A stretch of 64,000 nucleotides of DNA, from NCBI RefSeq assembly GCF_003018235.1, contig NZ_CP027437.1. One strand, given 5' to 3'. This document shows positions 18,501 through 21,500 of the stretch, in pieces. The position numbers were made by a program. Position 1 is the stretch's first letter. Each line of letters begins with the position of its first letter. This DNA is from Escherichia coli (GTDB lineage Bacteria > Pseudomonadota > Gammaproteobacteria > Enterobacterales > Enterobacteriaceae).

Positions 18501-21500
18501 GTGATGCGTGATCTGATAAAGCAGCATCGTTCTCCCATGGAGCTGATGACGATGCTGCGGTGACGTGCGCTTAAACGGGCTGCCCCTGATGCGACATCCG
18601 CGTCGCCAGCGGTAGCCAGCACAGCACGATCAACAATCCCATTAAGGTCATCAACAACCCCAGGCTGCCCTGACCGGTTTGCGGCAACATCGCAGAGAGC
18701 GACGCCAGCACGCCGGAACCAATGTTTTGTAGACCGCCGACCAGCGCGCCAGCCGTGCCCGCCAGGAAAGGGAACGGCTCCATCGCGCCGCTGGTCGCCA
18801 GCGGAAACAGCATCCCGGCACCGAAAAAGAACAGCGCGGCGGGAACGAGCAGCGTCCAGACATTCATCACGCCAAACCAGTCGGGGATCCACATCAGCAA
18901 GCCAGCCAGCAGGCAGCAGATAACCGACTGCCACATTAACGTTGAGAAGCGTTTATTAGGACGTCCGGCAAACCATGCCCCAAAAAATGCCGCCGGAATC
19001 GGCAGAATAAACAAAATACTGACCGTCATACTGCTCAGCCCTAACACCGCGCCCATCAGCACGCCGGAGCAGGCTTCAAAGGCGGCAATCCCGGCCAGAC
19101 CGCCAATCAGCATCAGCAAATAACAGTTAAAACCGCTGTTACCGAAAAGCGTTTTATAACTGGTAAGCAGGCGTGTGCGCGGTGCGTCGACCGGACGCGT
19201 TTCTGGCATCCAGCGGGCCATACTGAAGGTCACACCGGCACAAAGTACCAACAAAAAGAGATAACAGGCGCGCCAGTTCCACATCGTATCCAGCAGACCG
19301 CCGATTAGCGGTGCGAGCAACGGACTGACAAGAATTCCCATGTTTAACAGGCTATTAGCATGGCGCAACTGTGTCCGTTCATATAAATCACGCGGCAAAG
19401 TACGCGCCATTACGCCGCCAACGCCGGTGCCCATCCCCTGCATCGCGCTGGCGGCAATCAATACTGTCAAACTGGAGGTCGTGACCGCGACCAGCGTTGC
19501 CAGCATAAAAATGGACATTCCGACGAGGATCACCGGTCGGCGACCCACACGGTCGGAAATCGGGCCATAAAACAGCTGTGAGACACCGTAAGTCAGCAGA
19601 TAAGCGCCCATTACGCTCTGCACCGCCCCTTCACGGACGTTGAGATCGCGCGCCATATCGGCAATAGCTGGAATATAAATGGTTTGCGCCATCTGACCGA
19701 CGGCCACGAGTAATACCAACATCAATAACAAATTGACGTTTCTATGCCTTTTCATTATCACGGATGCTTTTATAAAAATAATTAGAATAAGTCACTACGC
19801 ATTCCCATAAATGCGGGAGAGGAATCTATCACATTGATAAATGTTAGCCAGATATACGCCAGGAATGGGGAATTGTTTAGCGGCAGAATATGTAAACAAA
19901 AGCGGCAATAAATGTTGCCGGGAGGGATTACGTGCGAACAGTAACCCTCTCCCTGAAAGGACGAGGGGGAAACCACCGTTCCCTTTCAGAAAATGAGCTA
20001 AACATTGCACGGGACGGTCCCCTCGCCCCTCTGGGGAGAGGGCTAGGGTGAGGGGCACAGGCAGCGCAGGTGCAAACATTCTGCTGGTAGAAGAAGCCCC
20101 CAACTCCAACTCACACGCTAAATATAAAAGGGGAGCGGTTACCCGCTCCCCTTTAGTGCGACTTGAATCTGAATTACTTCAGGTATTTCAGAACAGCATC
20201 AAGCAGTTGCAGTGCTGCAACAATGAGTTTGAGGATAAGAATGGCGATATCCACCAGGCTCATACGCGTCTCCTGTGGTTCAGGAGCACTGCCAGCTGAC
20301 GTACCTTTCCGCTGCCTGTTGCCAGCTGTTGTGCACGCGGTATCTCAAGGAGAAACGTTGTGCTTGTTGACATAACACAGTGTGCTCACGCGGGGTTAAG
20401 GCGCTGACGGCACCACCCGTTTCAGCCAGGACTTAGTGCGCCGGGTAACGATGCGGCCCCCACATAACACATTGCGTACAGTGATATTATAGAAGTTTAC
20501 TGTATAAATAAACAGTAATATTTGGACAAAACGCAAACTGTGAACGATACTCAACTATGCACTAAATACGTCAAAATTCGTGCCGAAATTGCGCGTTCTG
20601 TGCGGAACACGTATACTTTCTGTGTTGACATAATACAGTGTGCTTTGCGGTTACCAGCCGCAGGCGACTGACGAAACCTCGCTCCGGCGGGGTTTTTTGT
20701 TACCTGCAATTTAGTTCAAAACGTGATCAACCCCTCAATTTTCCCTTGCTGAAAAATTTTCCATTGTCTCCCCTGTAAAGCTGTGCTTGTATAAATATTG
20801 TTAAACACAAAACCAACAAGGTCCCCAATGACTACTTCCATGCTCAACGCAAAACTACTACCAACTGCGCCATCCGCCGCAGTGGTCGTCGTGCGTGTGG
20901 TGGTGGTCGTCGGCAATGCGCCGTAGGGACTGGAACAACACACGATTCCAAAACCCCGCCGGCGCAAACCGGGCGGGGTTTTTCGTTTAAGCACCTCCCG
21001 GAAAGTCGGCCCAGAAGAAAAGGACTGGAGCATGGCAAGTTCGGGCACAACATCGACGCGTAAGCGCTTTACCGGCGCAGAATTTATCGTTCATTTCCTG
21101 GAACAGCAGGGCATTAAGATTGTGACGGGCATTCCGGGCGGTTCTATCCTGCCTGTTTACGATGCCTTAAGCCAAAGCACGCAAATCCGCCATATTCTGG
21201 CTCGCCATGAACAGGGCGCGGGGTTTATCGCTCAGGGAATGGCGCGCACCGACGGTAAACCGGCGGTCTGTATGGCCTGTAGCGGACCGGGTGCGACTAA
21301 CCTGGTGACCGCCATTGCCGATGCGCGGCTGGACTCCATCCCGCTGATTTGCATCACCGGTCAGGTTCCTGCCTCGATGATTGGCACCGACGCCTTCCAG
21401 GAAGTGGACACCTACGGCATCTCTATCCCCATCACCAAACACAACTATCTGGTCAGACATATCGAAGAACTCCCGCAGGTCATGAGCGATGCCTTCCGCA

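Follow-up and report, generated by a model that had tools for sequence, protein, structure and literature searches.

The question raised by this locus is whether the DNA in front of ilvB contains a functional attenuator, and by which alternative RNA structures such an element would choose between termination and read-through. An earlier note, made from the sequence, had placed a leader peptide and an attenuator here, and we analyzed the locus in the window, that is, the whole stretch of 64 kb; coordinates refer to the window, and the features described lie on its plus strand unless stated otherwise. The element is almost certainly the ivbL leader and ribosome-mediated transcription attenuator of the E. 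coli ivbL-ilvBN operon. Nothing contradicts this identification, and the caveats given below concern mechanistic detail alone. The ivbL element is already known, being annotated both in K-12 and in RefSeq; the ivbL/ilvBN attenuator was described in 1982-83 and is in use as a Val/Leu biosensor. It carries little weight as a discovery; the analysis assigns each of the four RNA regions to defined positions. Its recognition from raw sequence serves as a positive control, since a regulatory ORF of less than 60 aa is missed by filters on ORF length.

The leader ORF occupies positions 20828-20926, with the ATG at 20828, as had been claimed, 32 codons in all, and a TAG that ends at 20926. Its product, MTTSMLNAKLLPTAPSAAVVVVRVVVVVGNAP, is identical to K-12 IvbL (b3672) at 32 of 32 residues. 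The peptide scores 72.6 bits against the Pfam family PF08049 (IlvB_leader; curated cut-off 25), matching over residues 1-32 of 32, and 78.7 bits against the NCBIfam IvbL equivalog NF007579 (curated cut-off 60). Nine of the 32 codons specify Val (five GTG and four GTC) and three specify Leu (two CTA and one CTC), which makes ivbL a short leader ORF enriched for the amino acids that the regulated pathway produces. The regulatory codon run VVVVRVVVVV comprises codons 19-28 (20882-20911), whereas the Leu codons, at positions 6, 10, and 11 of the ORF, are located away from it; the description of a run of Val/Leu codons was therefore slightly loose, although the Val run itself is real. A scan of the window in six frames found just three 10-codon stretches with at least eight Val, all of them overlapping and all at this run, against a Val frequency of 5.5% in the six-frame background. 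The Val run is no chance feature.

At 32 aa from the ATG, or 42 aa from an upstream TTG, the ORF was indeed passed over by a 60-aa cut-off, and it is overlapped by mechanically called minus-strand ORFs of 110 and 69 aa, which are annotated neither in K-12 nor in a strain that is 100% identical over 20600-21100. Comparison with the annotated K-12 ivbL, which had been proposed as a check, showed both the peptide and the DNA to be identical: from 20721 to the ATG of ilvB, the promoter, leader, and attenuator are base for base the same as in MG1655, and three substitutions are found at about 20700-20720, upstream of the element. The window is DNA of the E. coli chromosome, and its stretch 20600-21100 is matched in 5418 of 5426 complete E. 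coli genomes, with ivbL and ilvB annotated. The 100% matches include several swine ETEC-type strains, and the RefSeq name of the same ORF in the identical strains is 'ilvB operon leader peptide IvbL'. A search of Rfam 15 retrieved no family for the ivbL or ilvB leader; weak minus-strand matches to STnc310 and P6 at 20941-21009 fell far below the gathering scores and were taken as look-alikes caused by the terminator.

The first regulated gene, ilvB (21032-22720), encodes the large subunit of acetohydroxy acid synthase (AHAS) I, a protein of 562 aa. It was present in the ORF list and in the annotation, its ATG at 21032 lies 105 nt past the leader stop on the same strand, and its product scores 1084.9 bits against the AHAS large-subunit equivalog NF006016 (cut-off 870). 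The second regulated gene, ilvN (22724-23014), encoding the AHAS I small subunit, is an open frame of 96 codons, located where NZ_CP062203.1 has its ilvN annotation. The K-12 identity, the PF08049 and NF007579 matches, and the AHAS I large subunit encoded downstream bear out the assignment of the locus to the ilvBN attenuation module. The ilvBN operon is among the classical attenuated operons (PMC1183508; PMC6123439), and a leader of 32 aa is given in PMC6123439, citing Friden et al. 1982. Upstream of the element are istR (RF01400, 148 bits) at 20569-20698, tisB, and ysdE. On the other side of the operon, a hypervariable, low-GC (0.34-0.40) insert with two ORFs, absent from K-12, separates ilvN from uhpA; it gave no Pfam or PADLOC matches. 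About 20% of the complete E. coli genomes have it, in versions no more than 80-98% identical to that of the window.

To follow the element in other genomes, contigs representing one genome per species were scanned with a pattern that fixes only the Val run (GTN x4, CGN, GTN x5). The scan yielded 36 loci in Enterobacterales, at which a short ORF ending in VVVVRVVVVV(V)G(N/S/K/I)(A/T)P is followed by an acetolactate synthase-like gene. One of these loci, on an E. coli contig whose leader peptide is the same, was left out, and the 35 others together with the window make up the 36 aligned sequences. The genera include Escherichia, Enterobacter, Klebsiella, Citrobacter, Kluyvera, Leclercia, Kosakonia, and Cedecea, and further Serratia, Yersinia, Pectobacterium, Dickeya, Brenneria, Morganella, and Proteus. 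The leader ORF, the three helices described below, and the downstream acetolactate synthase-like gene are present in all 35 other genomes. The N-terminal half of the leader peptide varies freely in the alignment, and the invariant blocks are GGCA, GCGCCGTA, AACCCCGCCGGCG, and GCGGGGTTT.

The GC-rich hairpin with a T-tract that had been noticed ahead of ilvB is real. It forms an intrinsic terminator (20950-20988) between the leader ORF and ilvB, composed of an A-tract, a GC-rich stem, and the T-tract TTTTTCGTTT. The stem of the hairpin, 20950-20982, is interrupted by a single bulged G at 20971, and its loop of 6 nt lies at 20963-20968; the energy of -21.6 kcal/mol (z = -2.7) was equalled by 5 of 200 shuffles. 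The T-tract extends 3' of the stem to 20988, and the end at 20984 given earlier thus trims it by 4 nt; likewise, the hairpin is upstream of ilvB (21032) but not immediately before it, the gap being 43 nt. A simple consensus terminator scan did not call the ivbL terminator, likely because the bulged G at 20971 breaks the perfect stem that the scan requires. Across the alignment, 95.9% of the cells in the terminator pairs are paired, 10 of the 13 pairs are invariant, and the structure is kept in 36 of 36 sequences. A 3' end recorded by Term-seq carries the name ivbL_t; in a reporter, its termination strength was weak (PMC9023263).

The folding check proposed in the earlier note, a search for mutually exclusive hairpins, returned two further conserved helices, a protector and an antiterminator. 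Both involve region 2 (20911-20928; CGGCAAUGCGCCGUAGGG), which consists of the last leader codons and the stop and pairs with either region 1 or region 3. Region 1 (20890-20903), the 5' strand of the protector, lies within the Val run. The protector, helix 1:2 (20890-20903 with 20911-20923), has an energy of -10.3 kcal/mol and is found both as the local MFE structure and in the RNAalifold consensus of the 36 sequences. The antiterminator, helix 2:3 (20917-20966), has an energy of -21.9 kcal/mol (z = -3.9 against 500 mononucleotide shuffles); it pairs UGCGCCG at 20917-20923 with CGGCGCA at 20960-20966 and GGG at 20926-20928 with CCC at 20955-20957, and encloses an inner hairpin at 20931-20950. 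Helices 1:2 and 2:3 have 20917-20923 in common and are mutually exclusive. The antiterminator and the terminator 3:4 have 20955-20957 and 20960-20962 in common, which is 6 nt of the 5' arm of the terminator, and these too exclude each other. A lack of such hairpins, the outcome named in the note as a refutation, is therefore not what the folding shows. The whole leader RNA (20805-20988) folds at -71.4 kcal/mol, with z = -3.4 relative to dinucleotide shuffles. A long 5' hairpin of the E. coli MFE structure (20828-20910) was left out of the model, as some of its helices are just 50-75% paired among the orthologues.

Mean energies over the 36 sequences are -10.7, -21.5, and -21.8 kcal/mol for 1:2, 2:3, and 3:4, respectively. 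In 34 of the 36, the local MFE structure is the antiterminator with its GCGCCG:CGGCGC closure; 87.4% of the antiterminator cells are paired and four pairs are changed on both sides, three of them in the inner hairpin 20931-20950. In the protector, 98% of the cells are paired and there are no double changes. Compensatory changes are limited to the inner hairpin and to a leader hairpin at 20864-20883, considered below; the core pairs of all three helices do not vary, so that covariation neither supports nor refutes them. A different kind of evidence comes from the codons of region 2. Neither GCGCCGTA nor the two G that come next (in genomes with a TAG stop, the G of that stop) varies in any of the 36 genomes, and this extends to the third positions of the codons GCG and CCG, whereas the codons upstream vary. 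The freezing of synonymous sites in region 2 across Enterobacterales points to a constraint at the RNA level.

Transcription of the operon probably starts near 20801-20805, about 25 nt 5' of the leader ATG, judging from a candidate extended -10 element, TGtATAAAT, at 20788-20796. The element was read from the sequence, in a stretch that is identical in K-12, and it was not called by a consensus promoter scan. A search for CRP sites produced weak CRP-like candidates only, with three mismatches, at 20705 and 20722.

In the mechanism that we propose, a ribosome would translate the 32-codon leader as RNA polymerase transcribes the next ~60 nt. With charged Val-tRNA and Leu-tRNA, the ribosome would reach the UAG stop (20924-20926) and cover region 2, leaving region 3 (20955-20966) free to pair with region 4; the terminator, 20950-20982 with its U-tract, would then form and transcription would end before ilvB. 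Under a shortage of Val (or Leu), the ribosome would stall in or before the Val run and cover region 1. Region 2, thus exposed, would pair with region 3 upon its emergence, and the resulting antiterminator would sequester the 5' arm of the terminator, allowing the polymerase to read through into ilvBN. The response in vivo is a matter of the published record: read-through under limiting cognate amino acids is treated in PMC11187965 and PMC5373646, and an ivbL-gfp reporter was repressed by Val and Leu, with changes of Val and Leu codons altering its specificity (PMC11187965). In a delta-RF3 strain, attenuation at ivbL in rich medium is increased, in keeping with the presence of the stop codon within region 2.

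Dependence on the ribosome was modeled in silico by placing a ribosome-sized mask at each codon. In equilibrium folding of the complete leader, the terminator was favored at almost every ribosome position (P about 0.4-0.9; mostly 0.75-0.89), and in the naked full-length leader the terminator state was ahead by 4.4 kcal/mol (-71.0 versus -66.6). Since the terminator is preferred at equilibrium whatever the ribosome position, the switch must be kinetic, as in the classical model. The test was therefore replaced by folding of the nascent RNA with its 3' end before region 4, at 20968, together with a series of 3' ends. In the nascent RNA to 20968, 2:3 is the MFE structure when the A site is on codons 1-26, including the stalling positions Val19-Val26; it is weaker with the ribosome at Val27-28 and lost with the ribosome at codon 32 or at the stop. 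In the series of 3' ends, with the ribosome at the stop, region 3 is unpaired and terminator pairs nucleate by 20975, and with a stall at Val22 or Val24 regions 2 and 3 are paired at 3' ends 20968-20975. In these in silico conditions, the position of the ribosome thus selects between the structures.

Unlike the textbook picture, the MFE structures at 20968-20975 without any ribosome also hold 2:3, because 1:2 is weaker by about 11 kcal/mol, and folding alone does not establish the termination of an untranslated leader RNA. This same excess of 2:3 (-21.9 kcal/mol) over 1:2 (-10.3 kcal/mol), and its persistence in the ribosome-free series, agree with a switch of two states, in which a ribosome at or near the stop decides the outcome by occluding region 2, the weak 1:2 helix plays no real role, and an untranslated leader reads through. 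On the other hand, 1:2 appears in the RNAalifold consensus, and 98% of its cells are paired over the 36 genomes, albeit without compensatory changes; it would also form first in the course of transcription, as a local hairpin, and in the full-length E. coli MFE structure a second pairing, GGUCCC:GGGACU plus CGGC:GCCG, sequesters region 2 as well. We regard the two-state switch as possible, with the odds clearly against it.

The leader hairpin at 20864-20883, ACUGCG...CGCAGU, spans codons 13-19 just 5' of the Val run and is part of the RNAalifold consensus. In the alignment, 99.1% of its cells are paired, one of its pairs occurring as C-G in 24 sequences, U-A in ten, and A-U in one, and its covariation score was reached by none of 500 shuffles. 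The hairpin may be an RNA polymerase pause element or belong to the 5' structure, and it goes unmentioned in the accessible accounts of ivbL. A more far-reaching reading would make this hairpin a conserved functional element, for example a pause hairpin coupling translation to transcription, and in addition give the abundant terminated leader RNA of ~180 nt a role in trans as a target or decoy of the small RNA GcvB; we consider this combination rather improbable. If true, it would refine a known system and not constitute a new kind.

GcvB does act on this transcript. It is reported to repress ivbL through its R1 region and to form chimeras with the ivbL 5'UTR (PMC9299463), and a GcvB site has been predicted in the ivbL 5'UTR close to the AUG (PMC11347164). 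Both the 5'UTR and the ivbL-ilvB spacer are targeted, and RNase E cleaves in the spacer (PMC9299463; PMC11347164). In the window, CA-rich tracts are found in the 5'UTR (ACACAAAACCAACAA, 20805-20819) and at 20934-20943, and the first of them is likely the site of the reported pairing near the ivbL start codon. The leader could accordingly be imagined to act mainly after transcription, as a target or decoy for GcvB and for RNase E, with attenuation being secondary: GcvB represses translational fusions of both ivbL and ilvB, and it is found in chimeras with the spacer between ivbL and ilvB as well as with the ivbL 5'UTR (PMC9299463), a functional GcvB-RNase E interaction on ivbL has been described (PMC11347164), and the two CA-rich tracts agree with such a role. 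However, the reported repression of ivbL is weak (PMC9299463), the reporter responds to Val and Leu (PMC11187965), and the Val run, the terminator, and the antiterminator are conserved far beyond the needs of an sRNA site. A mainly post-transcriptional role is thus very unlikely, and control by GcvB, on which the earlier note is silent, is best seen as a layer added to attenuation, not as an alternative to it.

Finally, a chance small ORF followed by a hairpin that merely terminates an upstream transcript such as istR, conceivable insofar as short ORFs and hairpins are common and the consensus scan did not call this hairpin, is refuted by the K-12 identity, the HMM matches above the cut-offs, and the conservation of the element, in an unchanged gene order, across 35 further genomes, and has a negligible probability, istR having its own terminator at 20681-20698 and the Val run being unique in the window.

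The closest known system is the attenuator of K-12 ivbL/ilvBN itself (Friden, Newman & Freundlich 1982, PNAS 79:6156, cited in PMC6123439), from which the element differs at no position. The gene order, istR/tisB - ivbL - ilvB - ilvN, is also the same in K-12, which lacks the low-GC insert of ~3.2 kb that this strain has between ilvN and uhpA. The trp attenuator likewise has a short leader ORF, trpL, with tandem regulatory codons, and four RNA regions forming the 1:2, 2:3, and 3:4 helices, with the position of the ribosome deciding between antiterminator and terminator. The regulatory codons of ivbL are nine for Val and three for Leu as compared to two for Trp in trpL. The ivbL leader further differs in that its region 2 takes in the final leader codons together with their stop codon, and in that the calculated stability of 2:3 equals that of the terminator and greatly exceeds that of 1:2. 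The ilvL/ilvGMEDA and leuL/leuABCD systems belong to the same pathway and to the same class of mechanism, with leaders rich in codons for branched-chain amino acids. Unlike these, the ivbL leader contains no Ile codons and so reads Val and Leu only, and its promoter is, according to the title of Friden 1982, cAMP-dependent.

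Within the ivbL coding sequence, which precedes ilvB and ilvN, a 6-bp hairpin is formed by codons 13-19 (20864-20883, plus strand). Among the aligned ivbL loci of 36 Enterobacterales, including the window itself, synonymous sites within this hairpin covary in a clean, compensatory manner, with C-G found in 24 cases, U-A in 10, and A-U in one. It may represent an RNA polymerase pause or a structural element. The same region contains two CA-rich tracts on the plus strand, one in the ivbL 5'UTR (20805-20819) and the other in the ilvBN antiterminator, within the loop of its inner hairpin (20934-20943). 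Both fit the published targeting of the ivbL 5'UTR and the ivbL-ilvB spacer by the R1 region of the small RNA GcvB (PMC9299463, PMC11347164).

Downstream of these genes, an insert of approximately 3.2 kb separates ilvN from uhpA (23100-26400, plus strand), whereas in K-12 the two genes are separated by a gap of only about 75 nt. The GC content of the insert is 0.34-0.40, compared to 0.52-0.58 in the flanks. It contains two plus-strand open reading frames, encoding proteins of 435 aa (23267..24574) and 482 aa (24829..26277), neither of which had a match in Pfam or PADLOC; in E. coli carriers, the insert is annotated as "hypothetical protein". The insert is present in 1110 of the 5426 complete E. 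coli genomes, and is chromosomal in every carrier. Its copies are only 80-98% identical to that of the window, whereas the adjoining ivbL region is 100% identical in many genomes. The insert has the appearance of a hypervariable accessory island occupying a fixed site.

On the other side of ivbL, the small RNA gene istR (20569-20698, plus strand) was identified by a match spanning the Rfam model RF01400 end to end (148.2 bits, E = 3e-32), and it has its own terminator at 20681-20698. The partner toxin gene tisB (~20174-20263, minus strand) and ysdE (~19837-19911) were positioned by transfer from the annotation of NZ_CP062203.1. A strong plus-strand hairpin, GGGGAGCGGUUACCCGCUCCCC (20124-20183), falls, by position, in the tisB region. 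Its similarity to the Rfam family Termite-leu is sub-threshold, at 22.8 bits where the gathering score is 51, and we take it for a chance resemblance. The layout of istR, tisB, and ysdE in the window is the same as in K-12.
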